Shown here piece after piece: positions 23,140 through 63,074 of a stretch of 64,000 nt of DNA. This stretch comes from an uncultured Candidatus Saccharibacteria bacterium (lineage in GTDB: Bacteria; Patescibacteriota; Minisyncoccia; Phycocordibacterales; Phycocordibacteraceae), in assembly GCA_964638585.1 (NCBI GenBank), contig CAZXAN010000003.1, positions 30,047 through 94,046 on the forward strand, given 5' to 3'. A model generated the notes under the pieces. That model saw only the letters and a list, made by a program, of their open reading frames with translations. It made no database searches and was not told where the DNA came from. Each line of letters opens with the position of its first letter. Position 1 is the stretch's first letter. A program made the position numbers and the translations under genes.

Positions 23140-23165
23140 CCTAGTGCCTAGAGCCTAACGCCTAT
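23140..23165. repeat. CTAG-heptamer repeat (CCTAGTGCCTAGAGCCTAACGCCTAT)
   Basis: Shares the 17-mer TAGGCTCTAGGCACTAG (as reverse complement) with 4187-4203. Overlaps the csoR stop codon. Confidence 0.75.
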
Positions 23166-23437
23166 TTCCGCTTCAGCTTATAGACCTTCAGCACTTCATT
23201 TACTGCCTTACTACTCTGCCCCGATGTCATCTGCTCGTGTACGCAACCCTTCAGGTGATTCTCCATCAAGAGATCTTCAACAGTTGAGAGTGCCGCCTTC
23301 ACTGCTGACGTCTGCGCGATAACGTCAATACAATATGTATCCTTCTCTATCATCATGGCGAGACCGCGCACCTGTCCCTCAATAATCTTCAACCTTTTGG
23401 CTATTTTCGCGTCCTCTGTTTTATCTCCGTGTTTCAT
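23162..23437 (-). CDS. csoR: CsoR/RcnR-family metal-sensing transcriptional repressor
   Basis: 91-aa DUF156 protein with the conserved C...H...C metal site (YCIDV...HLKGC). First gene of the copA cluster. Confidence 0.85.
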   Translation of the reverse strand: MKHGDKTEDAKIAKRLKIIEGQVRGLAMMIEKDTYCIDVIAQTSAVKAALSTVEDLLMENHLKGCVHEQMTSGQSSKAVNEVLKVYKLKRK

Positions 23438-23448
23438 CCCCCTATCCT

Positions 23449-23465
23449 ATACCCCCTAGGGGTAT
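23449..23465. promoter_or_regulatory. Putative CsoR operator: GC-tract palindrome ATACCCCCTAGGGGTAT between a -35-like TTGACG and -10-like TAGGAT
   Basis: Near-perfect inverted repeat 12 nt upstream of the csoR ATG. CsoR operators are typically AT-flanked G/C-tract palindromes. Confidence 0.65.
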
Positions 23466-23493
23466 CCGTCAAGTGTAGTTGTGGATATGTGAA

Positions 23494-23527
23494 AGGGCGG
23501 GACATCATGTCCCGCCCTGTGTTTTCC
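23494..23527. terminator. Hairpin GGGCGGGACAT/ATGTCCCGCCC followed by GTGTTTTCC
   Basis: Perfect 11-bp stem. The T-run is on the + strand and only a weak U-run exists on the minus strand, so the strand assignment is uncertain. Confidence 0.5.
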
Positions 23528-23734
23528 GATTATCTTGGTTTTAGGATTAATCGGCAACCCCTAGTGCTTTGATTCCGAGTGAGTTTCGCCTCTCACTATC
23601 CCTCATTTAATTTATAACGCGCAGAGAGAGCTGCGCTATCGTTCAATCATCGCTACTAGGCTCCATTTTGTGGTTTACGCGGCTCTGGTCGAGGGTTTTT
23701 ATTTTCGTGAGAACCTAATAACTCACGTTGCGGT

Positions 23735-24076
23735 TCAGACGAACCGCGTCCTGACCGGCGCTTTCGCGTGCTGGCAGGAGTTGCCGTGGATGGTGGCCAA
23801 ATACGCTGCCATAATCCCACGCGGCACCATGCCCAACGGCATGTTACGCATCGTCTTGACCAAATTCCCACGTTGACTGACGCGGGTGAACTCAACGTCA
23901 GCGAACTCTTTTTTTGCAACCGGGCGCTCGGCTCTGCCGAGAAACGCGGCAAGAATGAGCTCACGGTTGGCCGCATCGTCCCCGTCGTTCTTCTTCACGA
24001 CGCGGATGACTCGTGGCGTAAACCCAGCCGCGACCAACTCTGCGATTGTCATGTCAAACACGTTTTTTCCGTTCAT
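23735..24076 (-). CDS. Hypothetical 113-aa protein, compositionally foreign (GC-rich, SD-preceded)
   Basis: An AAAGGAGAA SD lies 6 nt upstream, a TTGACA-N16-TATACT promoter lies upstream, and third codon positions are G/C-skewed, unlike neighbouring genes. Confidence 0.5.
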   Translation of the reverse strand: MNGKNVFDMTIAELVAAGFTPRVIRVVKKNDGDDAANRELILAAFLGRAERPVAKKEFADVEFTRVSQRGNLVKTMRNMPLGMVPRGIMAAYLATIHGNSCQHAKAPVRTRFV

Positions 24077-24140
24077 TGTGTTCTCCTTTTCGAGTGAACT
24101 TCGAACATGCGCATTTCTGCGCGCTTTATTACCTTCTGTA

Positions 24141-24168
24141 AGTATACACGAATAGCTGTATTTGTCAA
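24141..24168 (-). promoter_or_regulatory. Sigma70-like promoter TTGACAaata-N16-TATACT for the 113-aa ORF
   Basis: On the minus strand: TTGACAAATACAGCTATTCGTGTATACT. Confidence 0.55.
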
Positions 24169-24217
24169 TAGCTTTGGGACACCCGCCCAGAAACGCAATA
24201 AATACGACCTATTTTGG

Positions 24218-24236
24218 AACAAGGTTAAACCTTGTT
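24218..24236. repeat. Perfect 19-bp palindrome AACAAGGTTAAACCTTGTT overlapping the AbiEii stop codon
   Basis: 9-bp arms. No U-run follows on the minus strand, so it may be a protein-binding site rather than a terminator. Confidence 0.5.
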
Positions 24237-24912
24237 ATTCTAATATGATTTTGTTGACTACTTGAGGCACTTCTTTTATAAAATAGTCCTTTGCTTCTTT
24301 CCAGCTTGCTTCAAAGAAAATCTCTGGGGCAGGATCACTCTCGGCATCTTCAAAATAGACCAGACTTTTTAAGATATGGTGATAGTCATGGGCCACAAAA
24401 GGATACTGCTCTTTCACTCTTTTCATTAAATTCTCCAATGACTCTATATTCTTTGCGCACCAGTACAGGTCAAAGAAATCGCGCTTCCGCCCGCGTTGCG
24501 AAATGGCGATTATTTTCATAACGGCGATATCCAGCGGCTGTAGAATTTTTATTGAACCGTATTGAATAAAACTTTGATTGGGGACAAAGAACGGATAGGC
24601 AATAAAACTTATTTTGGCCTTAAAGAGTTCGCCATATACTGTATTTTTAGTATTTATGGTCGTCTCCCATTCGTTATTTCCTAAAAAATTTGTGAGTAGT
24701 TCAGATGTATCAAAGTCTGTTGCTGTTGTGAAAAAGTCCAAGTCTACTGACTTGCGATTCCCTACTTGCAGAGCTAGAGCTGTGCCACCAGCAAGATACC
24801 AATCACCTTCTGCGAGCCACGGTTGTTCAGATAAAAAACCAAACGCCTTTTTTGTTGCTACCGGTATTATACTAAAATTTGACTCTATTTGTTCTCTAGA
24901 AGCAGTGTCCAT
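24235..24912 (-). CDS. Nucleotidyltransferase AbiEii/AbiGii-like toxin (DUF1814 family)
   Basis: GGTALALQVGNRKSVDLDFF motif and 225-aa length are typical of type IV TA / abortive-infection NTases. Confidence 0.7.
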   Translation of the reverse strand: MDTASREQIESNFSIIPVATKKAFGFLSEQPWLAEGDWYLAGGTALALQVGNRKSVDLDFFTTATDFDTSELLTNFLGNNEWETTINTKNTVYGELFKAKISFIAYPFFVPNQSFIQYGSIKILQPLDIAVMKIIAISQRGRKRDFFDLYWCAKNIESLENLMKRVKEQYPFVAHDYHHILKSLVYFEDAESDPAPEIFFEASWKEAKDYFIKEVPQVVNKIILE

Positions 24913-25124
24913 AAATTTTTTGTTTGTGGCATTATCGAGCGCGATTTAGCGACCGTGCTTTTTAGTAGCGACTTGTCATAAAAATGATAGAGCCACTTCA
25001 CTTCGCTGTCATTGCCAAAGTCTAAAACTCTCTCAATAATGTATTGAGCATTTTTATCTGTGTCTATCTTCTCTGGATTCGTATCCCAGAATAAAGATTG
25101 TCTGAGCTTCATTACATTCTGCAT
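24885..25124 (-). CDS. Small upstream partner of the AbiEii-like NTase (putative antitoxin, family not recognised)
   Basis: 80 aa from MQNVMKLRQ. Its 3' end overlaps the NTase start by 28 nt, and the raw ORF's longer N-terminus would overlap the ABC ATPase gene. Confidence 0.45.
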   Translation of the reverse strand: MQNVMKLRQSLFWDTNPEKIDTDKNAQYIIERVLDFGNDSEVKWLYHFYDKSLLKSTVAKSRSIMPQTKNLWTLLLENK

Positions 25125-25131
25125 GCTCCAA

Positions 25132-25821
25132 TTATACCATACTTGCGCTCGTTGTTTTGATGATTTTGCCGTCGTCCAGAGTAAGGATGCGGTCAGCGAA
25201 TGAGGCATATTCGTCTTCGTGAGTCACCATAATAATAGTCTGACCTGATTTATGGAGTTCTTTAAAAAGATTCATGACGCGTGATGATGACTCGCGGTCC
25301 AGATTCGCTGTCGGCTCGTCTGCGAAGAGGATGCTTGGCTTATGCGCGATAGCACGTGACACAGACACGCGCTGTTGTTCACCTCCCGAGAGCTGACTCG
25401 GCAAGTTTTTAAGACGATTGCCGAGACCCACTTTCTCAAGCGCAGTACTAGCCTTTTCTTCTGCTACCAAACGCGAAGCCCCCTGCATAATGAGTGGGAG
25501 CGATACATTCTCTATCGCCGTTAGCTCCGGCAGAAGTGCATAATCTTGGAAGACGTAGCCAAATTCTTCTAGCCTAAACACCATCTTTTCTCTTTCGCTC
25601 ATCGCGTGCGCCTCTTTACCATTAATTAAGATCTCGCCTGATGTCGCTTCATCCAGAAGCGACATCTGATAAAGAAGAGTACTCTTCCCCGCTCCCGAGC
25701 GTCCCATAATTGCTACAAACTCGCCCTGCTTAGCGGTAAAGCTAATTCCCTTAAGCACGGTCGTAACATTTGGGCCGTCCTTAAAACTTTTTATTAGATT
25801 TTTAACTTCTATTGTATTCAT
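25132..25821 (-). CDS. ABC transporter ATP-binding protein (MacB/LolD/FtsE-like)
   Basis: Walker A GRSGAGKST, signature LSGGEQQRVSVSRA, Walker B ILFADEPT. Confidence 0.9.
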   Translation of the reverse strand: MNTIEVKNLIKSFKDGPNVTTVLKGISFTAKQGEFVAIMGRSGAGKSTLLYQMSLLDEATSGEILINGKEAHAMSEREKMVFRLEEFGYVFQDYALLPELTAIENVSLPLIMQGASRLVAEEKASTALEKVGLGNRLKNLPSQLSGGEQQRVSVSRAIAHKPSILFADEPTANLDRESSSRVMNLFKELHKSGQTIIMVTHEDEYASFADRILTLDDGKIIKTTSASMV

Positions 25822-25849
25822 GGTTCAATGTTATTCACCACAGGTATAT

Positions 25850-27109
25850 TTAATTGCGACCGAGGATAGAATCCAGCGTGTTCCGGCGAACTATCATCCG
25901 CGAAGGTAGATAGCCGGCGATGACAGTCGTGAGAATTATCAGTCCTATGCGAACCATAGTCTCGCCTATTGGTGCGACTATGATAGCCTCGCTAATCGGT
26001 AGCGATATCGGATTTGCCGATACGTAAGGCACTAGAAAACCGTAGAGAATAGCTAGACCGATGCCAGAACCGATAGCTGCATAAAATAATGATTGAAAAA
26101 CGTATGACAGCTCAATAGCAGAACCAGAAATGCCAATGCCTTTTAATATGCCAATAAATTTACGCCGAGTAATCGCATTTATAAAGATAACAATAAATAT
26201 GGTGATTGCTGCAACAACAAGACCGATAGAACCAATTGCGTTACCTATCATCGCAAACGTGTTCTGCACTTCGGCGACTCCGTTCGGTATCCCCTCTTCA
26301 AATGTCTGTACTTTTGCTTTATCTCCAACACCGCTCCGTTTCAATAGGTCCCGGAATGCCACACCGTCGGTACCGGGCTTAAGCAGGATAGCTATCTCAC
26401 TTACTGCGTAATCGTTTCTGCCCATCAATTGGCGGACTTCGGCCGCTGGCATAAAAACTCTAGCAGCCAAGGGAGAATTCGCCGGCACATCCAATATTCC
26501 CTTCACTATCACCTCGCGCGTATGGCCGTTTATTGTGAGGCGGATCTTGGTACCGGGATAAACATTTTTGAGAGGAGTGAGTCCGGGTTGTTCACCAAAC
26601 GAATATCTATCAACAAACTGCGGCCCGAGAAGAACGGTGTCGTAGTCTTTTTCAGACAGATAGTGCCCTTCGCCTACATACTTAGAAAGATTGGAAAAAT
26701 CATTTTCAACAGATGGGTCAATCCCCACTACGGACGCGCCCGTCTTATTAGCTTTTTCGTTTAAGTCTACTCGCGAATAATAATTCGCTTCAACAGTGCC
26801 AGAAGTGCTGTACCGCGCGCTAATAACCTGCGGTTGCGGGAGTGTTTTGAGAAAGGAAAGAATTTGCGGACTGTTCTCTATATAATCTTTTGTATCCAGT
26901 GGAGTAATCATCACGTCGCCAGTTTGTTGGATACGAAATTGGTTTGAAATGCCAGCTACAATGCCCACGAGTAAGCCTGTCACCACTACAAGATTAAGGA
27001 AAGTCAGAAGCATTACAAATACGATAAGAGTCGTAGTCCAACGGCTCGCACGTCGCAACTGTCGCAATGCGAGATAAAAGCCAACGCGGATATTTACAAT
27101 AGAAAACAT
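25850..27109 (-). CDS. ABC transporter permease, FtsX/MacB-type
   Basis: N-terminal TM helix, large extracytoplasmic domain and three C-terminal TM helices; 419 aa. Confidence 0.8.
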   Translation of the reverse strand: MFSIVNIRVGFYLALRQLRRASRWTTTLIVFVMLLTFLNLVVVTGLLVGIVAGISNQFRIQQTGDVMITPLDTKDYIENSPQILSFLKTLPQPQVISARYSTSGTVEANYYSRVDLNEKANKTGASVVGIDPSVENDFSNLSKYVGEGHYLSEKDYDTVLLGPQFVDRYSFGEQPGLTPLKNVYPGTKIRLTINGHTREVIVKGILDVPANSPLAARVFMPAAEVRQLMGRNDYAVSEIAILLKPGTDGVAFRDLLKRSGVGDKAKVQTFEEGIPNGVAEVQNTFAMIGNAIGSIGLVVAAITIFIVIFINAITRRKFIGILKGIGISGSAIELSYVFQSLFYAAIGSGIGLAILYGFLVPYVSANPISLPISEAIIVAPIGETMVRIGLIILTTVIAGYLPSRMIVRRNTLDSILGRN

Positions 27110-27111
27110 GC

Positions 27112-28623
27112 TTAGGGCTCCGGAGTTAGAAGAATAACGTCTCCGTTCACGAGACCGGAAAGGACGTGCGTTTGCCCAAGTGCCGGCGATATCCCTAGAG
27201 TAACAGTGCGACTATTCGTCTTATCACCGATGACGACAGACACATACGAGGTTCCGTTTTTATTACCAATAGCACCGCTCGGGATAACGACTGAATCTAA
27301 GAGCGTCCCCGTCGTGATAACAACATTCGCAGTCATACCGCTTCTTATTCGCGTGTCAGCGTTAAAAAAAGAAAGTGTAGTCTTGTACGCCGGAACGCCG
27401 TCTTTCATCGTCTCCGCCGGGTCAATAGCTATAACTTTTGATGAAAATTCTTCTGAAGATCCGTAGGCGTCAAGAGTTGTTGTAGCGCCATCCCCCACTT
27501 CAACTCCTGCGATCGCCACTTCCGGCACAAAGGTCTCAATCTGGAAGATTCCATCGCTCTGCATAGAGATTAACGATGCTGTCGGAGATACAATCTCGCC
27601 AACTTTTGCGTCCATGCGAGTTACGATTCCAGAAAACGGCGCCGTTACGTAGGTTTTAGCCAAAGCCGCTTTGGCATTATCTACATCTGCGCTGGCAGAT
27701 GCGACTGTTGCGGTTTGTGCAGATATAGCCTCTGGAGTGGATCCGGCCTTTTTCAGAGAAAGATTTTTTTTGGCTGATTCAAGTGCAGTCGTGGCATTAG
27801 TAAGAGTCGTAATCGCCGAATTAACGTTTGTACGCGCAGTCGCAAGAGTAGTCTGATGCGAGGAAATTGTTGAAGCAGAAGTATTATTGTCTGGGACGCC
27901 TTGATTCAAGGCTGCGTTGGAGTCGGACATAAGCTTCACGACCTGAGCCAGATATTTCTGCGCCTGAGTAGCCGAATCCGCCGACCCGTCATTTGTTAAT
28001 TTAGAAATAAGCAATGCAAATGAAACAAGCGCTGATTCAGAATCAACTCTGTCTTGTTCTGCCGCTGACTTCAATGCAGTATTGGAAACTATAAATGTAA
28101 GCTTTGGTTCGGTGCGAGGGTTGGTAAAAAACGCATCCACCTTATTATGAACAGCATCGTCGGAAGTCGTGTAAGCCGACTTAATAGCGTCAACGAGAGT
28201 CGATTCGGCGCTCGCGACAGAAGCGGCTGCAACTGCGATCTCTTCAGGTCGCGTTCCAACTTGTAACGAAGCCAGGTCTGCTTGTGCAGAGGCGAGTACT
28301 GCCCGCTTCTGCGCGAGCACCGCCACCAAATCTCCGTTTTCCGTTTGAGTGACAACCGTTCCAGCGACCATGCGTTGCCCAACACGTGCATAAACGCCTG
28401 ATATACGACCAGAAGCCGCGAAACCAAGATCAACATCTTTCGCGGCAATCACAGTACCAGAGACACTCACCTTTTGTGTGAAGTCGCCGGCCTGCACAAG
28501 TAGGGTCGCATTACTGCTAGCTCCGCCACTGAAGAAGAAATACCAGCCTAGAGCAAGGACAACAAGCACGGCGAGCGCATAGCGCCACCAAGTAAATACT
28601 AGGTTTTTTACGTTTGACATCAT
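27112..28623 (-). CDS. HlyD/MacA-family periplasmic adaptor (membrane-fusion protein) with a long coiled-coil
   Basis: N-terminal TM helix, biotinyl/lipoyl-like half domains and an extended Ala/Thr-rich coiled coil. Confidence 0.75.
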   Translation of the reverse strand: MMSNVKNLVFTWWRYALAVLVVLALGWYFFFSGGASSNATLLVQAGDFTQKVSVSGTVIAAKDVDLGFAASGRISGVYARVGQRMVAGTVVTQTENGDLVAVLAQKRAVLASAQADLASLQVGTRPEEIAVAAASVASAESTLVDAIKSAYTTSDDAVHNKVDAFFTNPRTEPKLTFIVSNTALKSAAEQDRVDSESALVSFALLISKLTNDGSADSATQAQKYLAQVVKLMSDSNAALNQGVPDNNTSASTISSHQTTLATARTNVNSAITTLTNATTALESAKKNLSLKKAGSTPEAISAQTATVASASADVDNAKAALAKTYVTAPFSGIVTRMDAKVGEIVSPTASLISMQSDGIFQIETFVPEVAIAGVEVGDGATTTLDAYGSSEEFSSKVIAIDPAETMKDGVPAYKTTLSFFNADTRIRSGMTANVVITTGTLLDSVVIPSGAIGNKNGTSYVSVVIGDKTNSRTVTLGISPALGQTHVLSGLVNGDVILLTPEP

Positions 28624-28650
28624 TAATTTTCACTCTACCACTCAGGTATA

Positions 28651-29301: not shown

Positions 29302-29468
29302 TGGATTTCGTAAATCCATCACATTCCTAGGTTTACCTTATTGTTCACTATAGACGATTCTAAGGTAAAGTGAAAAAATTGACATTCTAGTGAGAAAGAG
29401 GAATATGACGAATGGAAGTGAGCGCGCCTGCATCTGGATTTTTCCATTAACGAATGAAAGGTTCTGTC

Positions 29469-29612: not shown

Positions 29613-29633
29613 TCAGTAGTACCGAAAGCAAAA

Positions 29634-29662
29634 AGCCGGGCAATGCCCGGCTTTTTTATTTT
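29634..29662. terminator. Intrinsic terminator AGCCGGGCA-ATG-CCCGGCT plus a T-run (bidirectional, also follows groEL)
   Basis: Perfect 8-bp GC stem followed by TTTTTTATTTT. Confidence 0.8.
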
Positions 29663-29666
29663 ACTA

Positions 29667-29688
29667 AAGCCTAACGCCTAGAGCCTAG
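29667..29688. repeat. CTAG-heptamer repeat (AAAGCCTAACGCCTAGAGCCTAG) abutting the groEL stop
   Basis: Same heptamer family, in inverted orientation relative to the copy at 31330-31363. Confidence 0.7.
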
Positions 29689-29689
29689 T

Positions 29690-31363
<1,674 letters not shown>

Positions 31364-34556: not shown

Positions 34557-34826
34557 CTATTCAAATAGATCTGCGTGTGTGCCAGTGCGAACAAGTAGGA
34601 CTTCTTCGTCGGTAATATCGTAAATCAGAAGCCAGTCAGATTCTATATGGCACTCCCAGAGCCCTACGTATTCGCCAGAGAGTTTGTGCGGACGCGCGTT
34701 TTCGAGAAGCTGTTCCTCTTTTTCGAATAATCTTAAAAGTGTTACTAGCTTCTGAAGACTCCAGTTACGTTTCTGGATTCGTTTCAAATCTCTTTTATAC
34801 CGTGCTGTCGGGAGAAGAATTTTCAT
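34557..34826 (-). CDS. yafQ: Type II toxin YafQ (RelE/ParE superfamily mRNA interferase)
   Basis: 89 aa ending ...DEEVLLVRTGTHADLFE, as in YafQ. Paired with an upstream DinJ-like gene. Confidence 0.75.
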   Translation of the reverse strand: MKILLPTARYKRDLKRIQKRNWSLQKLVTLLRLFEKEEQLLENARPHKLSGEYVGLWECHIESDWLLIYDITDEEVLLVRTGTHADLFE

Positions 34827-42802: not shown

Positions 42803-44728
42803 ATGAACACCGCACCAGCACCTGCTCCGGCCCCGGCCGGCGCACAGTCAGGAGCAAACAGACCTCAAGCGACGCATCATGTCGGTCCTAAACGATATGA
42901 AGGGAGTGGCAGACCACCTAGCCGTTCTTCTTCGCGAGGAGCACCGCGCCCAGGTGGAGCATCAAGACGTATCCAGAGGATACTGCGCCGTCCTGCGTCT
43001 AACCCAATGCGCATTAACAATGCAATAGACTACTATCCAGAGCCGGTAGGGCCGACATCTGTCCGCATTATCCCGCTCGGCGGAGTAGAAGAAGTCGGTC
43101 GTAATATGACTGCAGTAGAGGTAGGAGCAACAGGCGATATCCTAGTATTTGACGCTGGGTTCCAATTCGTCTCTGAGGACACTTCTCCAGGCGTTGACTA
43201 TATTCTCCCAAATACAAAGTACCTAGAGAAAAATGCGAGTCGAGTAAAAGGGGTGATAATCACTCACGGGCACCTAGACCACATAGGGGGTATCCCATTT
43301 ACTCTTCCACGATTCGGTAATCCACCTATCTACACGCAAAACTTTACAGCAATTATGATCCAGCGTCGTCAAGAAGAGTATCCTGACGTACCAACATCTG
43401 TAGTTAACATTGTTGAGGTTGGACAATCTGTCGTGATCGGCTCTACGCGTGTAAAGTTCTTCCCTGTTACGCACTCTATCCCTGACTCTATGGGCGTCTC
43501 AATAGAGACACCTCAAGGCAACGTGGTTATTACAGGCGATCTTAAACTTGACCACGACGACGGTACACCGAGCGAGCGCGAAGTGAAAACTTGGGGCGAG
43601 CTCGGTAAAGATAAAAATATATTCTTCATAGCAGACTCAACAAACGCCGAGAGAGACGGGTTCTCTATACCAGAGAAGCGCGTTATACAGACGCTTGAAG
43701 ATATCATCAAGACAGTTTCGGGCCGTCTTATTATCGGCACTTTTGCATCTCAAGTTGAGAGAATGCTTCACATCATCTTAACCGCAGAAAAACTTGGTAA
43801 GAAGGTGGTCACAGAAGGTCGCTCTATACGCAACTATCTAGAATGTGCTGAAAAGGCAGGGATTGTAAAAATTGATAAAGGTACGATTATCCCAGCGCAA
43901 GATATTGGCAACTATCCGCCTGACAAAATAGTCATCTTATCTACTGGTGCGCAGGGCGAGGAGTTTGCCGCTTTGATGCGCATAGCGACTAAACAGCACA
44001 AATACATCACGCTTACCGAGCGCGACACTATCGTGCTATCGTCTTCAGTCATCCCTGGTAATGAGATCTCTGTGCAGAAACTGAAAGACAATCTGTATCG
44101 GCACAATGTCTCTCTGATCCATTATCGCTCAAGCGACGTCCACTCTACCGGTCACGGCAATACAGGTGAGCTTGTATGGATCAATAAGCAGATCCATCCA
44201 AAGTTCTTTATGCCTGCCTACGGCTATCGCTCAATGACTGCGTGCCACGCCAAGGCGGTTGAGCAATCTGGCTTCCCTCGCGAGAACATCATTATCGCCG
44301 ATAACGGAACGGTCATTGACATTGAAGACGGGGAGAGAATGAACGTGCACAAACAGAGAGTTCCAAATTCGCAAATGGTCGTTGACGGCTTCAACATCGG
44401 CGATATACAAGAAGTTGTTATCCGTGATCGTCAGTCGCTCGCCAAAGACGGCATGTTCGTGATTATCGCGAGCGTTAACCTCAAGACCGGCAAGTTGCGC
44501 AAATCGCCCGACATCATCAGCCGAGGCTTCGTCTACCTGCGCGAGTCGCAGAATTTGCTAAATGAAGGACGTATTCTAATTAAGAAAACAGTTGAAGATT
44601 CTACGCGCAACATGAACCCGATTGACCTAGACTACGTGAAGAATAATCTCACAGACGTTATGGCCGGATTCCTCTTTGCGCGCACCAACAAAGCCCCGAT
44701 GGTGATCCCAGTTCTCATCGGAATGTGA
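42803..44728 (+). CDS. rnj: Ribonuclease J (beta-CASP metallo-beta-lactamase family)
   Basis: HGHLDHIGG metal motif, beta-CASP and C-terminal domains. An Ala/Pro/Arg-rich basic N-terminal extension precedes them. Confidence 0.85.
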   Translation: MNTAPAPAPAPAGAQSGANRPQATHHVGPKRYEGSGRPPSRSSSRGAPRPGGASRRIQRILRRPASNPMRINNAIDYYPEPVGPTSVRIIPLGGVEEVGRNMTAVEVGATGDILVFDAGFQFVSEDTSPGVDYILPNTKYLEKNASRVKGVIITHGHLDHIGGIPFTLPRFGNPPIYTQNFTAIMIQRRQEEYPDVPTSVVNIVEVGQSVVIGSTRVKFFPVTHSIPDSMGVSIETPQGNVVITGDLKLDHDDGTPSEREVKTWGELGKDKNIFFIADSTNAERDGFSIPEKRVIQTLEDIIKTVSGRLIIGTFASQVERMLHIILTAEKLGKKVVTEGRSIRNYLECAEKAGIVKIDKGTIIPAQDIGNYPPDKIVILSTGAQGEEFAALMRIATKQHKYITLTERDTIVLSSSVIPGNEISVQKLKDNLYRHNVSLIHYRSSDVHSTGHGNTGELVWINKQIHPKFFMPAYGYRSMTACHAKAVEQSGFPRENIIIADNGTVIDIEDGERMNVHKQRVPNSQMVVDGFNIGDIQEVVIRDRQSLAKDGMFVIIASVNLKTGKLRKSPDIISRGFVYLRESQNLLNEGRILIKKTVEDSTRNMNPIDLDYVKNNLTDVMAGFLFARTNKAPMVIPVLIGM

Positions 44729-44755
44729 ATTTAGCCTACCTAAATTCATGTCGAT

Positions 44756-44790
44756 AAAAACAAGCAGTCCGTTCGGGCTGCTTGTTTTTA
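44756..44790 (+). terminator. Intrinsic terminator AACAAGCAG-N10-CTGCTTGTT plus TTTTAT
   Basis: Perfect 9-bp stem downstream of rnj. A second hairpin (AAACTGCGCG-TA-CGCGCAGTTT) lies at 44828-44858. Confidence 0.7.
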
Positions 44791-44890
44791 TCGACTAGGT
44801 CCAGTATTCCTGGAATCATGTCAGTAAAAGAAAACTGCGCGTACGCGCAGTTTTCTTTTACCGACGAACGCATGTGATATTCTAAGCAGA

Positions 44891-52176: not shown

Positions 52177-52182
52177 TTTATT

Positions 52183-52206
52183 AAAGCCTAGTGTCTAAAG
52201 CCTAAT
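52183..52206. repeat. CTAG-heptamer repeat (AAAGCCTAGTGTCTAAAGCCTAAT)
   Basis: Same family, a degenerate copy between rpmI and rplT. Confidence 0.6.
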
Positions 52207-52929: not shown

Positions 52930-53015
52930 ACGAATTTCTTTACAGAATCTTTTGTAATCTCCCAAGATTGGCTGAAGTCGGGAACGACGGTGCGCACCGA
53001 ACTCTTCCGCCAAGC
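52926..53015 (-). pseudogene. Orphan 29-codon remnant of a beta-CASP RNase C-terminus (AWRKSSVRTVVPDFSQSWEITKDSVKKFV*)
   Basis: Homologous to the C-terminus of the intact gene at 53712-55115 (AIVPDFGQSWEITKEAIKRVSVL*). It has an upstream in-frame TAA and no start. Confidence 0.65.
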
Positions 53016-53030
53016 TTATCCCCTATTTAT

Positions 53031-53054
53031 AACGGTCGTATATAATAGCGGATA
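53031..53054. repeat. 23-nt direct repeat ACGGTCGTATATAATAGCGGATA (copy 1, abutting the stop of the 193-aa gene)
   Basis: An identical copy lies at 53651-53673. Confidence 0.8.
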
Positions 53055-53636
53055 TCATTTCAAGCCGAAATGCTCGCGCAAATGCTTGTCGTTCTCTATT
53101 TCCTCAACGACCATATACAACACCGCCGCTCCAATTTTCAGTTCTGCCTTAAGTAAGGCAACGAACTCCTCGCAGTCATATGGAAATACCCACACACTGT
53201 CCTGCAAGCGCATGAAGCCAAGCTCCCGCATCAAAACGCGTAGTCGATCTCGCACCTTGCGTCTCCGTTCTGGTATATCAAAAATAACTACGCGCCATCG
53301 CCCATTCCACCGCCGCTTTTTGGAAAGATCCAATTTATTTTTCTCTAACTCAAATGCTAATTTCTCACGTCCTACGTCGGTGATGCGTGCGTATGCCTTC
53401 CCTTCTCGTTTCTCGAACGTGATGTAGCCGAGTGCTGCGAGCCGCCCGATGGCTGTCCGGTATCGAGCGCGCAGTTGTGCGTGCTTCATGCTCGGGAGTT
53501 TCGAAAGCGCCATAGGGAGAGCTGGCGCCACGGCGGCAACTAATATCACGCCAGAAAGAGCAACTGTCGCGAGGATTGCCTGTTGTATATATCCTTTTTT
53601 CCGCTTCTTTTGTGCTCCTGATTCAACGATTCCCAT
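53055..53636 (-). CDS. Membrane-anchored winged-helix protein with a PaaX-C/Cas2-like domain (putative transcriptional regulator)
   Basis: A basic N-terminus and TM helix, a wHTH (RLAALGYITFEKREGKAYARITDVGREKL), then WRVVIFDIPERRRKVRDRLRVLMRELGFMRLQDSVWVF, which is typical of the PaaX C-terminal fold. Confidence 0.5.
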   Translation of the reverse strand: MGIVESGAQKKRKKGYIQQAILATVALSGVILVAAVAPALPMALSKLPSMKHAQLRARYRTAIGRLAALGYITFEKREGKAYARITDVGREKLAFELEKNKLDLSKKRRWNGRWRVVIFDIPERRRKVRDRLRVLMRELGFMRLQDSVWVFPYDCEEFVALLKAELKIGAAVLYMVVEEIENDKHLREHFGLK

Positions 53637-53650
53637 ATCCTCAATATACC

Positions 53651-53673
53651 ACGGTCGTATATAATAGCGGATA
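53651..53673. repeat. 23-nt direct repeat (copy 2), 14 nt upstream of the start of the 193-aa gene
   Basis: Identical to 53031-53053. Contains TATTATATA on the sense strand, which is -10-like. Confidence 0.8.
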
Positions 53674-53711
53674 GAGCTGAAGGATGAATAGTGTGCATTC
53701 TATAAAACGTA

Positions 53712-55115
53712 CTAAAGTACAGACACTCGCTTTATTGCTTCTTTCGTTATCTCCCAAGATTGGCCGAAGTCGGGGACGATGGCGGTAGCGCCGAGATAGT
53801 CGTGGATGCGCTGGGCGAGGAATCGTTCGGTTGCTGGCTCGCCCATGGCTGTAAAAATGGTTTTTGTACGCCCGCCTGCGCTTGTAAGCGAGGCTTCGGC
53901 AAATTTGAGAAGCTCGTCGCGGTCGGCGTGGGCCGACCAGCCTTCTAGATTCTCCACAGTGGCCCGTATTTCTATATCCCGCCCATTGAGGCGTACACTC
54001 CTCGCGCCCTCTCTCATGCGCCTCCCAGGGCTACCCGGGGCCTGGTAGCCCACTATTATGAGCGTAGAGGCGCTATCAGGCAGATATTTGGACTCCCAGC
54101 CCCCTATCCTGCCACCGTGGCTCATACCGGCGCCAGCGATGATTATCTTAGGCCCAGCAACCTTCTCTATTTCTGCCGAATGGTCGCGAGATAAGGTTTG
54201 TTTAAGAAATGGAAACTTGAATATACTCCCTTCTCTCTTTATCTCATCTTCTACATCTTTTTTAAAATAAGTGGCTCCCCACTTCTCATACACGTCAGTG
54301 ACGTGAATCGCGAGCGGCGAATCTAGATAAACTGGAATTTCTGGAAGTTCTTTTGCAGAAAAAAAGTTAGAGAGCTCGTAGAGCATCAGCTGGGTGCGTT
54401 CTAGCGAGAATGCCGGTATTAGAATAGTGCCGCCTCTTTCTATGGCTCGCCGTAGTGTCTCGCGAAGGCGACTAACGCGTTCAGAATGTTGCGGGTGTAA
54501 TCTGTCGCCGTACACGCTTTCCATGACAATCGCATCTGCATCGGTGATTGGTTCCCAGTCGGGAAGGAGTGGCGACGGGCAGTTGCCGATATCACCTGTT
54601 AATGCGATAGATGTGCCATCAGAAAGGTCCTTAATCCGCACGCTCGCCGAGCCAAGGATGTGACCAGTGTTGCGTAAGTAGACCGATAGTCCCGGCGCGA
54701 CCTCTTTTTCAGTATGATATTCAAGAGTTTCCATTTGCGTAAATGTTTTCTCAACATCTTGCACTTCGTATAATGGCGCGACGCCTCGGCGTCGCGCCTC
54801 CTCGCCCAAGATCCCGACCGAGTCTAGCATAATAAGCTCCGCCAAGTCTTTTGTCGCCGATGTCATATATATTTTCCCGCCAAAACCGTCGCGCACTAAT
54901 TTAGGGAGTCTGCCAACGTGATCCAGATGCGCATGAGTTAGCACGACTGCATCAACACTTTTCACATCATAGTGAAAAGCGCCGTAGATATGCTCTTCAA
55001 CAAAGTCGGCGCCCTGCTCTATTCCGCAGTCCACAACAATTTTCCCGCGTGTGCCTTCTATTAAAAAATTAGAGCCTGTCACCTTCCCTGCTCCGCCATA
55101 AAATGTGAGTTTCAT
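53712..55115 (-). CDS. MBL-fold beta-CASP ribonuclease (RNase J/CPSF-like)
   Basis: Start MKLTFYGGAGKVTGSN, then the HAHLDHVG motif and beta-CASP motifs. The raw ORF's 45-aa N-terminal extension is discarded. Confidence 0.8.
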   Translation of the reverse strand: MKLTFYGGAGKVTGSNFLIEGTRGKIVVDCGIEQGADFVEEHIYGAFHYDVKSVDAVVLTHAHLDHVGRLPKLVRDGFGGKIYMTSATKDLAELIMLDSVGILGEEARRRGVAPLYEVQDVEKTFTQMETLEYHTEKEVAPGLSVYLRNTGHILGSASVRIKDLSDGTSIALTGDIGNCPSPLLPDWEPITDADAIVMESVYGDRLHPQHSERVSRLRETLRRAIERGGTILIPAFSLERTQLMLYELSNFFSAKELPEIPVYLDSPLAIHVTDVYEKWGATYFKKDVEDEIKREGSIFKFPFLKQTLSRDHSAEIEKVAGPKIIIAGAGMSHGGRIGGWESKYLPDSASTLIIVGYQAPGSPGRRMREGARSVRLNGRDIEIRATVENLEGWSAHADRDELLKFAEASLTSAGGRTKTIFTAMGEPATERFLAQRIHDYLGATAIVPDFGQSWEITKEAIKRVSVL

Positions 55116-55164: not shown

Positions 55165-55349
55165 GGAACTGTTCTCTCCGGCAACTTTTTTATGCCAGGT
55201 GGGATAAACAACGACGGCTTTCGGATTCCTTCACAGGCTTCACCAAGCACGTCTTAATGCTATTCTCCCGAGTTAGTATCAAGTTGCGTTTTCAAGAACA
55301 GCTCCACTTATAACTATACACCCTGTGTCAAATTGTCCTGTGGAAAACC

Positions 55350-55934: not shown

Positions 55935-55963
55935 ATTTTAAAAATAAAATGCGCAGAGCGCTG

Positions 55964-57291: not shown

Positions 57292-57310
57292 CCAACTACT
57301 TTAACACTTT

Positions 57311-59033: not shown

Positions 59034-59043
59034 ACAAAATTTA

Positions 59044-59661
59044 TTACGCCTTGCGAAGTTTCTTAAGAGCAGCGACCGTCGCACGAGCGATAGTGAGCTT
59101 GTTCTTAGAACGACTGTGAATCTTTGTCACGACATCTGTCACACCAGCAAGATCAAGCACAGTGCGGACAGCCGAGCCGGCGACGAGACCACGACCCTGT
59201 GATGGGATTATTTCTACAGTGGACGAAGCATATTTGGTTACAACTTGGTGCGGGATAGAACCAGAAGCTGTGCGAGGAATAGTGAAGAGGTGTTTCTTTG
59301 CATCACGCACAGCCTTATCTATAGCGAGAGCCGTATCAATACCTTTGCCTAAGCCGACACCAACACGCCCCTTCTTGTCGCCAATGACGACCACGAGACT
59401 GAAGTTGAATCGACGACCACCTGCCATAACACGAGCCACGCGTCGCGCATCAATCGTTACTTGCTCAAACTCTCCGCGCTCACGTGGTGCTCGACTGCGA
59501 CTGCCACCTCTCTGTGCACGACCTCTTATAGATCCACGACCTCCGCGAGCCGGCACGGTAGCTACAGGAGAAACCTCTTCTGGAGTTATTTCAACTGGTA
59601 CTGGAACACCGGTAACGATGTCTTCTTCTTTTATTATTTCTGGCTCCATTGGTGTAGTCAT
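59044..59661 (-). CDS. rpsE: 30S ribosomal protein S5 (with an acidic N-terminal extension)
   Basis: S5 dsRBD and C-terminal domain motifs. Directly precedes rplO, so no L30 gene is present. Confidence 0.9.
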   Translation of the reverse strand: MTTPMEPEIIKEEDIVTGVPVPVEITPEEVSPVATVPARGGRGSIRGRAQRGGSRSRAPRERGEFEQVTIDARRVARVMAGGRRFNFSLVVVIGDKKGRVGVGLGKGIDTALAIDKAVRDAKKHLFTIPRTASGSIPHQVVTKYASSTVEIIPSQGRGLVAGSAVRTVLDLAGVTDVVTKIHSRSKNKLTIARATVAALKKLRKA

Positions 59662-59667
59662 AAGTAT

Positions 59668-60018
59668 TTAAAATTTGAGTCCGCCTTCGCGAGCCGCATC
59701 GGCGAGCGACTTAACCTGTCCGCCGTAGCGATAACCGCCACGGTCAAAGACTGCTGCCGTGACTCCGAGCGCGACCGCCTTCTTGGCGATCGCCGAGCCG
59801 ACCGACTTCGCCTGAAGCGACTGTGCGCCCTTGAACTCTCGTCCGTGTGCGGCCGCAACCGTCTTTCCTGCTGTATCGTCAATCAGCTGTGCCGAGACGA
59901 AGCGGTTACTACGGAAGACAGCGAGACGCGGACGCTCAGCAGTGCCCTTCACTGTCGCCCTTACTCTCGCATGTCTGCGCTTGCGTAGTTCGCTATTTGT
60001 TTTAGGTTTGTGATTCAT
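59668..60018 (-). CDS. rplR: 50S ribosomal protein L18
   Basis: 116 aa, RPRLAVFRSNR... Confidence 0.9.
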   Translation of the reverse strand: MNHKPKTNSELRKRRHARVRATVKGTAERPRLAVFRSNRFVSAQLIDDTAGKTVAAAHGREFKGAQSLQAKSVGSAIAKKAVALGVTAAVFDRGGYRYGGQVKSLADAAREGGLKF

Positions 60019-60048
60019 GTTTTTGTATTTCCTGCTTACTGCTTTCTG

Positions 60049-60579
60049 CTACACGGCCTTCTTACCTTGCTTCCTGCGGATCACCTCTCCTTCATAGTGA
60101 ATGCCTTTGCCAAGATACGGCTCCGGTGGCTTTACACGGCGAACGTTTGCGGCAAATTGTCCGACTGCCTCCTTGTCAGAACTCTCAATCGTCATAACAT
60201 TCTTTTCTGCCTTTGCTGTAATTCCTTCTGGAATCGGGAGTGACACTGTGTGAGAGAATCCGACAGTTAGAATTACATCCTTACCCTTCACTTCCATACG
60301 GTACCCAACGCCGTCCAAAATAAGCTTTTTTATGTATGGTGTCTCAACACCTTGTACCATATTCTTCACATGCGAGGCGAATGTGCCGGTGAGTGCCTTA
60401 GCGAGACGCGAAGTATTCTTCGGCGTAATCATCACTCCATCAGCGCCTACCTCGATATCAATAGACGGATGTACGCGCTTGATGAGCGTACCCTTCGCTC
60501 CTTTCACGACGAGATCCCCACCTGTCACCGAGACAGTCGTCTTTCCTATTGATATTGGCTTCTTAGCGAGTCGTGACAT
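60049..60579 (-). CDS. rplF: 50S ribosomal protein L6
   Basis: MSRLAKKPISIGK... ; 176 aa. Confidence 0.9.
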   Translation of the reverse strand: MSRLAKKPISIGKTTVSVTGGDLVVKGAKGTLIKRVHPSIDIEVGADGVMITPKNTSRLAKALTGTFASHVKNMVQGVETPYIKKLILDGVGYRMEVKGKDVILTVGFSHTVSLPIPEGITAKAEKNVMTIESSDKEAVGQFAANVRRVKPPEPYLGKGIHYEGEVIRRKQGKKAV

Positions 60580-60583
60580 AAGT

Positions 60584-60616
60584 AATTATTTATAGTGAGC
60601 GTAGTCGAACTACCAG
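60584..60616. repeat. 32-nt repeated intergenic/3'-end sequence AATTATTTATAGTGAGCGTAGTCGAACTACCA (copy 1, rpsH-rplF junction)
   Basis: Near-identical to 61016-61047 (one substitution). Confidence 0.7.
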
Positions 60617-61014
60617 ATCTGGAACAACTCTTCGCCACCAGAGCGAGTCTTGCGCGCCTCTGAGTCAGTGATAATCCCAGACGGCGAAGAAATAACCATC
60701 GCTCCTGTGCCACCCTTCACCTTGTGCGCCGTCGTGAACGGCGTGTAGAGCCGTCGACCCGGCTTGCTTATTCTCTTCACGCCACGGAGCTTCGCGACAC
60801 CATGCTCGTTGTACGCGAGCGTTACTGCAAAACTTCTCTGCACTTTTTCATCTTCTGCTTTTTCTATTTTTACAGAATCTATAAATCCAAGCTCTTTCAG
60901 TTTCTTCGCGATCGCGACAAGGTGGAGCGAGTAGGGTACAGAAACGTCCTTCTTGCCGACGATAGCGGCATTCTGCAAACGGATTATAAAATCTCCAACT
61001 TTATCCGTAATCAT
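60610..61014 (-). CDS. rpsH: 30S ribosomal protein S8
   Basis: 134 aa, operon position. Confidence 0.9.
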   Translation of the reverse strand: MITDKVGDFIIRLQNAAIVGKKDVSVPYSLHLVAIAKKLKELGFIDSVKIEKAEDEKVQRSFAVTLAYNEHGVAKLRGVKRISKPGRRLYTPFTTAHKVKGGTGAMVISSPSGIITDSEARKTRSGGEELFQIW

Positions 61015-61015
61015 A

Positions 61016-61047
61016 AATTATTTATAGTGAGCATAGTCGAACTACCA
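61016..61047. repeat. 32-nt repeat copy 2 (rpsN-rpsH junction)
   Basis: AATTATTTATAGTGAGCATAGTCGAACTACCA. Confidence 0.7.
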
Positions 61048-61311
61048 AGAGGCCTTCTTAACGCCCGGTATCTTCCCTTCTCGCGCGAGCTCGCGGAACT
61101 TGATGCGTGAGAGTCCGAATGTGCGCATATAGCCTCGAGAACGGCCGGTTATACCACAGCGGTTCTTCAGCCTTACTGGCGAAGAGTTTCTCGGGAGCTT
61201 CTGGAGGCCTTCAGAATCACCAGCCAACTTCAAAGCCGCACGCTTAACGGCGTACTTCTTTACGAGTTTCTGCTTCTTAGCAAGTCTCGCCAATTGGGAT
61301 GCTTTTGCCAT
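61042..61311 (-). CDS. rpsN: 30S ribosomal protein S14
   Basis: 89 aa, ...[26 protein letters not shown]... Confidence 0.9.
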
Positions 61312-61444
61312 AGGGATAATTAAGGGCTCTCTGGGACTCTACCTACCTCCCGCACTCATTTTGAAGTAAAAATAAAGCCCCCGAGGAGCGTGAATATAAT
61401 GTATCACCTAGTTCCTGCGCCGTCAAACTTCCTTTTGCATGAAA

Positions 61445-61472
61445 GGGAAACCCCACTGAAGTGGGGTCTTTC
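61445..61472. terminator. Hairpin GGGAAACCCCACT-GA-AGTGGGGTCTTTC downstream (sense) of the HTH gene
   Basis: Stem of about 11 bp with one mismatch, 13 nt after the HTH stop. Confidence 0.45.
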
Positions 61473-61484
61473 TGAGTGGCTTAA

Positions 61485-61703
61485 CTAGTCCACTATTGTT
61501 CCTTTTCGGGCGACGATGATGTTAAAAAGAGCTAGACGTGAGGCAGAAATAAGTGGGCTCTTGCGCTGCTCCCAGTTTCTGACTGTCCCGAGCGGTACAT
61601 CGAACGTATCGGCAAACTGCTCCTGCGTCAGCTTCAAGGAGTTTCTAAAGCCAATTAACTCTTCTGAGGTAACCGCCGCCTTCGATACACTCCTCTTACT
61701 CAT
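61485..61703 (-). CDS. XRE-family helix-turn-helix protein (72 aa; antitoxin/Cro-like) inserted in the r-protein operon
   Basis: HTH LTQEQFADTFDVPLGTVRNWEQRKS. A GGGGGTG SD lies 5 nt upstream and a TTGACA box further upstream. The raw ORF's N-terminal extension is discarded. Confidence 0.7.
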   Translation of the reverse strand: MSKRSVSKAAVTSEELIGFRNSLKLTQEQFADTFDVPLGTVRNWEQRKSPLISASRLALFNIIVARKGTIVD

Positions 61704-61778
61704 GAGACACCCCCTATTTGTCGATTTAAAAATGCACATTAAGAAACATACATTGCCGTTCGATGCCATGTCAAATGC

Positions 61779-61811
61779 AAAGGGTCATGGCCGAACAGCC
61801 ATGACCCTTTT
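61779..61811. terminator. Perfect 13-bp hairpin AAAGGGTCATGGC-CGAACA-GCCATGACCCTTT between rplE and the HTH gene
   Basis: Immediately after the rplE stop on the sense strand. Confidence 0.5.
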
Positions 61812-61824
61812 AAAAATTACGAAA

Positions 61825-62373
61825 TTACTTCTTAGTTGCCTCTACGATAAGCGGCATGCCAATGTGGCGGAAGAATGCCTCGGCTTCGGCTTTTGACTTG
61901 GCCGTGGTGACTATCGTTATGGCGAGACCGAACACGTCCTTCAGATCTTCATCTGAGGTCTCAGGAAATATTGTATGCTCTTTTATACCAATCGTAATGT
62001 TACCCATATCGTCTATGGTTGACGCTTTAAGACCGCGGAAGTCGCGTGTACGCGGGAGGGCGATATGGATGAGCTTATCGATAAAGTCGTACATGCGAGC
62101 GCCGCGGAGCGTCACTTGGAGGCCTACAGTGTCGCCCTCGCGCACCTTAAAAGCGGCGATAGAGATCTTCGCGCCGCGTAGAGCAGACTTCTGCCCTGTA
62201 ATCTTGGCGAGGCGATCTTGAATCACTTCTATTTGTTTTTTATCTCGTTTCTTCCCTACTCCACTAGAGACGATGACTTTTGAAATGCGAGGGCCCTGCA
62301 TAGGACTGGTATAGCCGAACGCTTCTTTGAGTGCGATGTAGGCTTCTTGCTGACGTTGTTTAGTAATAGACAT
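61825..62373 (-). CDS. rplE: 50S ribosomal protein L5
   Basis: 182 aa. Confidence 0.9.
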   Translation of the reverse strand: MSITKQRQQEAYIALKEAFGYTSPMQGPRISKVIVSSGVGKKRDKKQIEVIQDRLAKITGQKSALRGAKISIAAFKVREGDTVGLQVTLRGARMYDFIDKLIHIALPRTRDFRGLKASTIDDMGNITIGIKEHTIFPETSDEDLKDVFGLAITIVTTAKSKAEAEAFFRHIGMPLIVEATKK

Positions 62374-62376
62374 AAT

Positions 62377-62652
62377 TTATTTCTTATTAGCCTTGACTGG
62401 CTTATCTGACACTTCGAGAGCCGACTTAGTCTTCGTCGTTGAAACGAGCGCGACGTTGGACACATGAACAGCGCGAGGTCTCTCTACGATACGACCAGTC
62501 TGTCCCTGACGGCCTCTCGTGTGGCGCTTATAGAGCGCTACGCCTTCAATCACTACTTTATTCTCCTTTGGCAGGGCGCGTGCGACCACACCGGTCTTCC
62601 CTTTATCCTTTCCCGATATGACTCTCACTTTGTCTCCTTTTTTAATTTTCAT
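62377..62652 (-). CDS. rplX: 50S ribosomal protein L24
   Basis: [21 protein letters not shown] is a KOW-motif N-terminus. Confidence 0.9.
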
Positions 62653-62660
62653 ACAAATAT

Positions 62661-63038
62661 TTATACGACTTCGGGCGCGAGCGCGACGATAGAGTGCCAT
62701 CCCATCAAGGAGAGCTCGCGAGGCACAGGGCCGAAGATGCGGTTCCCTTTCGGCGCCATCTCCTTACCTTGCTTTTCTATAAGCACGACGGCGTTCTCAT
62801 CAAAGCGGATGTACGAGCCGTCCTTGCGACCGAAAGGCTTTACCTGGCGAACGACCACTGCGCGAAAGATGTCCTTCTTCTTCACCGCTTTACGTGGCAT
62901 TGCCGTCTGAATAGAAACAACGACAACGTCGCCGATCTCTGCGTAACGACGTTTACTGCCACCGAGCACCTTAAAGACGCGTGCGACAGTGCCGCCTGAG
63001 TTATCTGCAACTGCAACTATGGATTGTGGTTGTAACAT
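62661..63038 (-). CDS. rplN: 50S ribosomal protein L14
   Basis: [16 protein letters not shown]... Confidence 0.9.
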
Positions 63039-63045
63039 AAGAATA

Positions 63046-63074
63046 ATTAGGCACTAGGCTCTAGGTCTTTAGCC
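63046..63074. repeat. CTAG-heptamer repeat (ATTAGGCACTAGGCTCTAGGTCTTTAGCC) between rpsQ and rplN
   Basis: Overlaps the rpsQ stop codon. Confidence 0.7.

Follow-up and report, generated by a model that had tools for sequence, protein, structure and literature searches.

Arrays of a heptamer family occupy seven gene junctions

We analysed a 64,000-nucleotide stretch of contig CAZXAN010000003.1 (positions 30,047 to 94,046 of the forward strand) from an uncultured Candidatus Saccharibacteria bacterium, referred to here as the window and numbered from its first nucleotide, in which short tandem arrays built on the heptamer TAGGCNC recur between genes. A first-pass annotation had listed seven such arrays, and a motif scan with inspection of the sites found every one of them in place. 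Given with the strand that reads TAGGCNN, they lie at 4181-4201 (+), 4574-4594 (-), 23137-23164 (-), 29667-29687 (-), 31339-31359 (+), 52184-52204 (-) and 63048-63068 (+). The first two enclose a gene of the 23S ribosomal RNA (rRNA) intervening-sequence protein family and with it form a cassette, and the other five are solo arrays.

The enrichment beyond base composition that had been suspected is real within the window: tandem pairs, (TAGGCNC)2 with at most one mismatch, matched 10 times, compared with 0.21 expected and a maximum of 2 in dinucleotide shuffles. The single heptamer is at its expectation (25 vs 24.3), and therefore the signal lies in the tandem arrangement. An independent three-unit scan of the window returned exactly the seven sites, and no copies beyond them were found there at the thresholds used; Tandem Repeats Finder recovers four of the seven. 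The first-pass annotation had also argued that CTAG is normally avoided and that its enrichment here implies function, an argument that fails, as CTAG occurs 147 times in the window against 155 expected under a Markov model.

The build of the arrays is uniform over all seven copies. Rather than the two to four units described at first, each consists of three TAGGC[GAT][CT] units, with C or T at the seventh position, followed by TAG(C), and spans about 24-25 nt. The copy at 52184 is the weakest match (15 of 18 core positions). Near-identical stretches of 17-24 nt are common to several copies (19 nt at 100% and 24 nt at 96% identity), so that the shared exact 17-18-mers noted earlier are present, as 17-19-mers.

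Open reading frames (ORFs) cover about 90-95% of the window, and all seven arrays sit at gene junctions within co-oriented gene strings: pilT-like/IVP, IVP/pilC, csoR/copA, groEL/terminator, groES/groEL, rpmI/rplT and rpsQ/rplN. On the mRNA, three arrays read TAGGCNN (TAG orientation) and four read NNGCCTA (CTA orientation). The upstream stop codon lies 0-9 nt before the start of each array or inside it, and three arrays supply or overlap that stop, namely those following IVP (...KASA-stop), csoR (the first TAG) and the ribosomal protein S17 gene (AKDLEPSA-stop). The picture of a dispersed family in operon spacers and at stop codons is therefore upheld. Because three (C)TAG heptamers give a stop in every frame, we infer that the arrays are tolerated only at gene junctions.

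Two or more tandem units, dispersed copies, a frequency above chance and a location in the spacers of co-oriented ORFs, which together define intergenic heptanucleotide repeats, are all found here, and related genomes are polymorphic for the presence of the arrays at groES/groEL, at the groEL 3' end and at rpsQ/rplN. Look-ups with the window's own proteins returned same-species contigs only, in which the spacing was identical and the array copy number unchanged. Judged by the closest homologues of its IVP, S17 and GroES proteins and by metagenomic contigs on which identical proteins occur, the window derives from a Parcubacteria/Kaiserbacteria-like lineage within the Patescibacteria. Rfam matched a known RNA family at none of the copies. 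A clustered regularly interspaced short palindromic repeat (CRISPR) array was considered and rejected, since its repeats are regularly spaced whereas the copies here lie 0.4-21 kb apart in separate operons.

A cassette with the anatomy of an rRNA intervening sequence lies in a pilus operon

The two arrays between 4179 and 4603 frame a single small gene, IVP (4197-4547, minus strand), whose neighbours encode T2SSE (4604-5692) and T2SSF/PilC (2973-4178). The 117-residue IVP protein, a four-helix bundle, matches Pfam PF05635 (23S_rRNA_IVP; E 2e-35), TIGR02436 (E 1e-33) and the PDB entry 2GSC (XCC0516; E 3e-22), and it is Avd-like, with a weak match to the NCBIfam model DivGenRetAVD (E 2e-4). On the minus-strand mRNA the 5' arm (4571-4603, -) reads CTAGCCGAC-TAGGCAT-TAGGCGC-TAGGCTC-TAG; it begins directly downstream of the stop codon of the PilT/PilB-like T2SSE gene and leaves 26 nt to the IVP start codon. 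The 3' arm (4179-4205, +) reads GCTAGT-GCCTAGA-GCCTAGC-GCCTAAT on the mRNA, contains the stop codon of IVP and lies 2 nt upstream of the pilC ATG.

The two arms are 100% complementary over 19 nt (at 4179-4197 on the 3' side) and lie 373 nt apart. When we folded 4170-4612 (-), both the minimum free energy (MFE) structure and the centroid paired the arms in a stem that closes the whole ORF (z = -3.0). The inverted pair that had been noticed around the four-helix gene is thus borne out as a perfect 19-bp stem in the predicted RNA, and its gene belongs to the family found in 23S rRNA intervening sequences (IVSs). The segment 4179-4603 (-) is a complete cassette, composed of a TAG-type arm, the IVP gene and a complementary CTA-type arm, inserted in sense between the pilT-like gene and pilC; judged from the sequence, it should be co-transcribed with these flanking pilus genes.

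This anatomy is that of the 23S rRNA IVSs of Coxiella burnetii, Leptospira and Brucella, placed in an mRNA operon of type IV pilus genes. In both settings the loop encodes a protein of the same PF05635 (S23p) family, terminal inverted repeats close a stem (about 20-28 bp in the IVSs), and the ORF lies in sense in the host transcript. In the Coxiella 23S IVS, 3-4 tandem heptamers (GACAGAT) are located just 5' of the S23p ORF, and RNase III cuts at the first repeat (PMC4990558). By contrast, the window cassette lies in the pilT-pilC mRNA operon and not in helix 25 or 45 of 23S rRNA, its arms belong to a dispersed repeat family with solo copies, and its excision by RNase III is a prediction. An Rfam scan detected no rRNA in the window.

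A second relative of the IVP protein is Avd of diversity-generating retroelements (DGRs), a homologous four-helix-bundle pentamer to which it is distantly related. At the locus in the window, IVP has T2SSE and T2SSF genes as neighbours. The Pfam scan, which covered roughly 50 of the window's approximately 80 ORFs and included both neighbours, returned no reverse transcriptase; no search aimed at template or variable repeats was made.

Inverted heptamer arrays surround IVP homologues in metagenomes

Searching metagenomes with 28 aligned homologues as query yielded 80 loci, the best of at least 600 tblastn hits, with proteins 44-62% identical. By eye, most of these loci carry tandem heptamers upstream of the gene and their complement downstream, and the heptamer differs by lineage. 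For flank statistics we compared the 72 loci in which both flanks are present with 165 random control positions, using as the final array detector a windowed self-match score with controls; a stricter version (mismatch penalty -3) missed most arrays. A period-7 array was present in at least one flank of 48 of the 72 IVP loci, as opposed to 4 of 165 upstream and 6 of 165 downstream control flanks. Other periods were rarer at the IVP loci (period 5, 6 or 9 in 2-3 of 72, period 8 in 14). The two flanks were inverted-complementary, with a score of at least 12, at 49 of the 72 loci and at none of the 165 controls.

These arms have a preferred polarity. Upstream of IVP, TAG outnumbers CTA at 48 loci and the reverse holds at 14; downstream, CTA outnumbers TAG at 50. 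Their units share the consensus [T>C>G]AG-NNNN, in which the last four bases vary. Gaps of about 55 nt beside the IVP genes correspond to the arms. IVP is co-oriented with its upstream neighbour in 60 cases vs 6 and with its downstream neighbour in 33 vs 14, and none of the 80 loci contains rRNA in Rfam scans at the gathering threshold, in which only tRNA genes matched. Inverted YAGNNNN arrays with the TAG arm upstream thus surround IVP homologues in most of the metagenomic loci examined.

The arm unit also occurs away from the gene. Distant arrays on the same contig have the unit of the arms in 25 of 73 cases, compared with a null of 3.4% from cross-contig comparisons, and the sharing of one unit by solo copies and IVP arms is seen in the window as on the survey contigs. 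The nearest IVP homologues, at 62% identity, have heptamers that differ from TAGGCNN.

Directly downstream of many IVP cassettes (L128, L130, L133, L136, L142, L144, L146 and L170, and also L090 at 2469-2912) lies a PrgI-like gene, whose product begins MQFKVPQF(L/I)E(I/V)EDKIFGPF. A type IV secretion-like operon of Patescibacteria looks like a preferred cassette site.

The same arms enclose variable cargo in other operons, or none

IVP homologues that are 79-85% identical have the same TAGGCNN/NNGCCTA arms in a different operon, of PrgI, TraC-like and VirB4-like genes. The loop holds IVP alone in L209, a 130-aa ORF with no Pfam match (9607-9999) together with IVP in L206, and a 154-aa DUF5680 ORF (3113-3577) together with IVP in L210. 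Because additional ORFs lie beside IVP between the arms, we conclude that the cargo of the cassette varies. A Saccharibacteria locus (L101) and one from Acidobacteriota (L085) also have this layout, with units of the TAGGCNC type.

Several Patescibacteria loci contain 'empty' hairpins that consist of a TAG arm, a loop of 10-50 nt and a CTA arm. Such arm-loop-arm hairpins occupy the rpoA/rplQ and rplQ/rplM spacers in L030 and surround a TraC-like gene in L090. Terminal inverted repeats bound the cassette; a clear target-site duplication was not seen when we compared filled and empty junctions at groES/groEL and rpsQ/rplN. In L210 and L211, two Y1_Tnp ORFs lie side by side about 5 kb downstream of the cassette; those of L210 are not flanked by arrays.

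Solo arrays behave as lineage-specific insertions

Each solo array starts close to the stop of the preceding gene or contains it. In the csoR/copA spacer, the array (23137-23165, -) stands in TAG orientation on the mRNA and its first TAG is the csoR stop codon. The array at the groEL 3' end (29664-29689, -), likewise in TAG orientation, starts 2 nt after the groEL stop and is followed by an intrinsic terminator hairpin at 29631-29658. At the other end of groEL, the array in the groES/groEL spacer (31337-31363, +) reads CTA on the mRNA; 1 nt separates it from the groES stop and 14 nt from the groEL ATG. The rpmI/rplT spacer contains the most degenerate copy (52182-52206, -), in CTA orientation on the plus-strand mRNA, and at the rpsQ/rplN junction a CTA-oriented array (63046-63074, +) encodes the S17 tail AKDLEPSA with its TAA stop.

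Conservation of these arrays holds over short distances and then breaks down. In relatives with 94%-identical GroES, the groES/groEL array is almost unchanged and an unrelated hairpin follows groEL; at 90% GroES identity, the groES/groEL spacers are 8-9 nt long and neither groEL array is present. The groEL 3' array was not found at the orthologous site in the relatives L224-L228. The rpsQ/rplN array is kept in L221, whose S17 is 81% identical, with 18 of 19 bases the same next to a diverged tail. It is absent from L222, in which S17 has 81 aa and its stop lies 2 nt from the rplN ATG. In L223 (10235-10306), unrelated palindromic repeats take its place, and the S17 tail is made of three copies of the palindromic 15-mer CGAGGAGTCACCTCG. 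Solo copies thus behave as lineage-specific insertions that are able to persist, and not as conserved paired stems. Beyond ending or extending ORFs, we assign them no conserved role.

Other repeats are found at the same junctions. In one of the lineages with 90% GroES identity (L244-L246), a different heptamer array, ATAGCGG ATAGCGT ATAG (unit ATAGCGN), directly follows the groEL stop. The C-terminal tails of S17 are hypervariable across Parcubacteria (homologues of 80-136 aa), and some look repeat-encoded (RGDTSKRGVTS..., ...SRPTK). The contig of L221 begins within a (GCCTCCA)x5 array (1-35); assemblies seem to break at heptamer arrays.

Other repeats and genes in the window

Two further heptamer arrays lie in the window. 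(CTACAAA)x4-5 at 526-566, on the minus strand, falls within the leader-coding 5' end (MNIKLQTTNYKLPTGFTLVE...) of a prepilin-like gene (9-569, -); in L148, L158 and L132, IVP cassettes beside pilin genes have arms built from this unit. (AGCAGNA)x3 at 60026-60050 lies in the rplF/rplR spacer, a spacer that is absent in the relative L221; it is followed, just before the ATG, by GGAAATACAAAAA, and the same 13-mer follows the csoR/copA array (23118-23140).

Longer repeats are present as well. A 32-nt repeat (60584-60615 and 61016-61047, 97% identical) lies in neighbouring ribosomal-protein spacers and includes a small GTAGTTCGACTAC hairpin. Direct-repeat blocks at 52938-53054 and 53636-53782 (83-87% identical) flank a 193-aa ORF (53055-53636, -) and could reflect a duplication or mark an insertion boundary. 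A 130-nt direct repeat, 74% identical, lies at both ends (9437-9566 and 12153-12282) of a gene for an 878-aa PG_binding/PKD protein. Near-perfect palindromes at 15503-15560, 44750-44795 and 44820-44865, with arms of 22-27 nt and loops of 0-4 nt, are probably bidirectional terminators; the first and the third contain AAAAGAAAACTG. The window further encodes toxin-antitoxin-type genes at 24235-25208 (AbiEii with DUF6922) and 34557-34826 (a YafQ/ParE-family toxin), and RNase J at 42803-44728.

Discussion

The explanation that best fits these observations, to which we assign a probability of roughly 60%, is that the TAGGCNN arrays are this lineage's heptamer-repeat family, in which inverted copies serve as arms of an IVS-like cassette and further copies stand alone. 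By analogy with 23S rRNA IVSs, the arm stem of the transcript is probably a substrate of RNase III. Cleavage would then release the cassette RNA and uncouple the cistrons on either side. Each of the five solo arrays would be either a lone insertion or a decayed half-element of this family and, at its site, would end or extend the upstream ORF, as at the csoR stop and in the S17 tail.

Several observations weigh against this reading. None of the five solo copies folds locally to a significant degree relative to shuffles (z -1.4 to +0.9) or has a partner arm nearby, so that the stem mechanism applies directly to one element of the window. The comparison with REP-like (repetitive extragenic palindromic) elements and RNase III processing stems in the first-pass annotation was relevant, yet a role as processing stems is not supported for those five; local hairpins at the solo copies are rejected. 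Neither an RNase III gene nor a transposase or other mobility machinery was identified among the window ORFs scanned. The direction of descent may also differ, with solo arrays derived from cassettes or cassettes exploiting pre-existing arrays, and the surveyed loci are a biased sample of one subfamily. Elsewhere, (TAGGCNC)3 is present in at least 120 stretches, drawn from species-representative genomes across many phyla, about 17 being expected by chance under uniform base composition, and an IVP gene was found in 2 of 120 such stretches, with at most 8 kb fetched for each. In viral contigs, TAGGCNC arrays occupy 21 stretches, compared with 26, 13 and 19 for control tandem heptamers of equal composition, namely GTGACNC, TGGACNC and TAGCGNC. 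As control heptamers are about as frequent, the unit itself is not special, and many arrays exist without IVP.

Two broader propositions were rejected on these counts: that TAGGCNC is a universal conserved motif, since the cross-phylum matches reflect the general abundance of heptamer repeats, and that an IVP gene accompanies every (TAGGCNC)3. A bolder extension of the cassette model would make PF05635 proteins and inverted heptamer arrays a widespread two-component spacer cassette found across bacterial phyla, of which the rRNA IVS is a special case. The pentamer would recognise 3-5 repeats in RNA or DNA and either propagate the arrays or control RNase III-type processing of host operons, with solo arrays as its targets in trans; we think this unlikely.

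The arrays might instead be cis sites for a trans-acting factor, most plausibly the four-helix pentamer, which would bind the repeats in RNA or DNA and tune translation, coupling or stability at the junctions of highly expressed operons (groESL, ribosomal, copper export). We regard this too as unlikely, although several findings agree with it: solo arrays share the unit of the IVP arms both in the window and on other contigs, all copies have the same three-unit length, CTA-oriented arrays stand 2-14 nt before start codons here and at other loci of the candidate phyla radiation, the rpsQ/rplN array of L221 is nearly identical while the adjacent tail diverges, and the IVP fold is a pentamer related to the nucleic-acid-binding Avd. 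However, the different heptamers of the nearest IVP homologues indicate that the protein does not track the unit closely, and orthologous junctions of close relatives lack arrays. Both mRNA orientations occur, and local proliferation or gene conversion would explain the sharing of units equally well.

It is quite unlikely that the arrays are ordinary, neutral simple sequence repeats (SSRs) made by slippage and unrelated to the four-helix gene. On this view heptamers would simply be the commonest class of long bacterial SSRs. An excess of heptanucleotide SSRs is reported for many genomes (see the references in PMC4679880 and PMC4692102). The abundance of control heptamers in viral contigs, the long perfect arrays in high-GC phyla and the other heptamer arrays of the window are in line with such an origin. 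Slippage, however, explains neither the inverted arms around one gene family nor the fixed polarity with the TAG arm upstream, nor why one unit stands at seven junctions. Moreover, the units within the window arrays are non-identical, each copy has exactly three of them plus TAG, and same-species contigs show no length variation.

We consider it very improbable that opposed copies pair over long distances or in trans and form processing stems around whole genes, groEL among them. The inverted pair around groEL, which had been likened to that of the four-helix gene, is real in the sequence and pairs in silico: the flanking arrays form a predicted 23-bp duplex (-38.9 kcal/mol) that is paired in the MFE structure of the 1721-nt transcript. 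The two pairs are nevertheless not equivalent. Any two inverted copies of the family pair in silico, the groEL pair places the CTA arm before the TAG arm, the reverse of the canonical cassette, and the other solo copies have no partner inside their own operons. As a conserved feature, the groEL stem is rejected by the relatives, in which only the 5' array is retained at 94% GroES identity and both are missing at 90%.

Finally, that the arrays are REP/BIME-like elements (bacterial interspersed mosaic elements) mobilised by a Y1 transposase, or REP-associated tyrosine transposase (RAYT), is hardly credible: the copies are intergenic and within operons, the (C/T)TAGGC core resembles the GTAG-containing head of REP elements and Y1_Tnp ORFs occur near the cassettes of L210 and L211, but single copies are not palindromes, the window ORFs tested include no Y1 transposase, and the Y1_Tnp genes of L210 have no flanking arrays.

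The TAGGCNN arrays belong to a known but unexplained class of intergenic heptanucleotide repeats. The short tandemly repeated repetitive (STRR) heptamers of cyanobacteria are comparable, being genome-specific tandem heptamer families. In Geobacter metallireducens there are several families of heptanucleotide repeats, which are likewise genome-specific, consist of 4-5 tandem heptamers, in some cases arranged as hairpins, and are unexplained in function (PMC2700814). The Geobacter and STRR families differ from the present one in unit and lineage, and no associated gene is reported for them. The TAACTGA repeats of marine Beggiatoaceae, some Cyanobacteria and Bacteroidetes, with 2-6 tandem heptamers (MacGregor 2015, PMC4679880), also lie just upstream of start codons, overlap upstream stops and supply stops in three frames; they have been suggested to spread horizontally and to act post-transcriptionally (PMC4679880). 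Unlike the arrays described here, they are almost exclusively direct, in one orientation to the downstream gene, and neither inverted pairs nor a cargo gene are described (PMC4679880).

The GGGAATC arrays of Xanthomonas and the GGGGA(C/T)T arrays of Nostoc are, like those of the window, transcribed tandem heptamers between co-oriented ORFs, at most 50 bp from stop or start codons and with many inverted pairs (PMC4692102). For Xanthomonas, 186 GGGAATC arrays are counted that lie between co-oriented ORFs, and 70 of these form convergent pairs (Rehm et al. 2015, PMC4692102). By contrast with TAGGCNN, these units are G-rich and have been read as G-quadruplex formers, and their copy number is variable, up to 14 units (PMC4692102). 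According to the supplement of that study, a GGGAATC array overlaps the start of XCC0516, the PF05635 homologue whose structure is 2GSC, and an inverted GGGAATC pair lies in the Xanthomonas groES/groEL spacer; S23 is not mentioned in its text or supplementary files (PMC4692102). In the literature searched, we found no paper that mentions TAGGCNC arrays and none that links four-helix-bundle genes to inverted heptamer arrays. The connection between heptamer repeats and the PF05635 family thus appears to be unreported there.

For the organism itself, the arrays account for features that would otherwise look odd in the annotation of the window, namely unusual C-terminal tails such as that of S17, the positions of stop codons and enlarged spacers in otherwise compact operons. 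More generally, intergenic heptamer repeats have been reported for decades in cyanobacteria and later in Xanthomonas, Beggiatoaceae and Geobacter without explanation, and PF05635/TIGR02436 is a very large family of unexplained function named after its rare rRNA context. Xanthomonas campestris offers a tractable system, in that the structure of XCC0516 is solved and its gene adjoins a GGGAATC array. If the repeats and this family belong together, such repeats would be the stems of IVS-like cassettes in mRNA operons, and the protein would gain candidate nucleic-acid partners.

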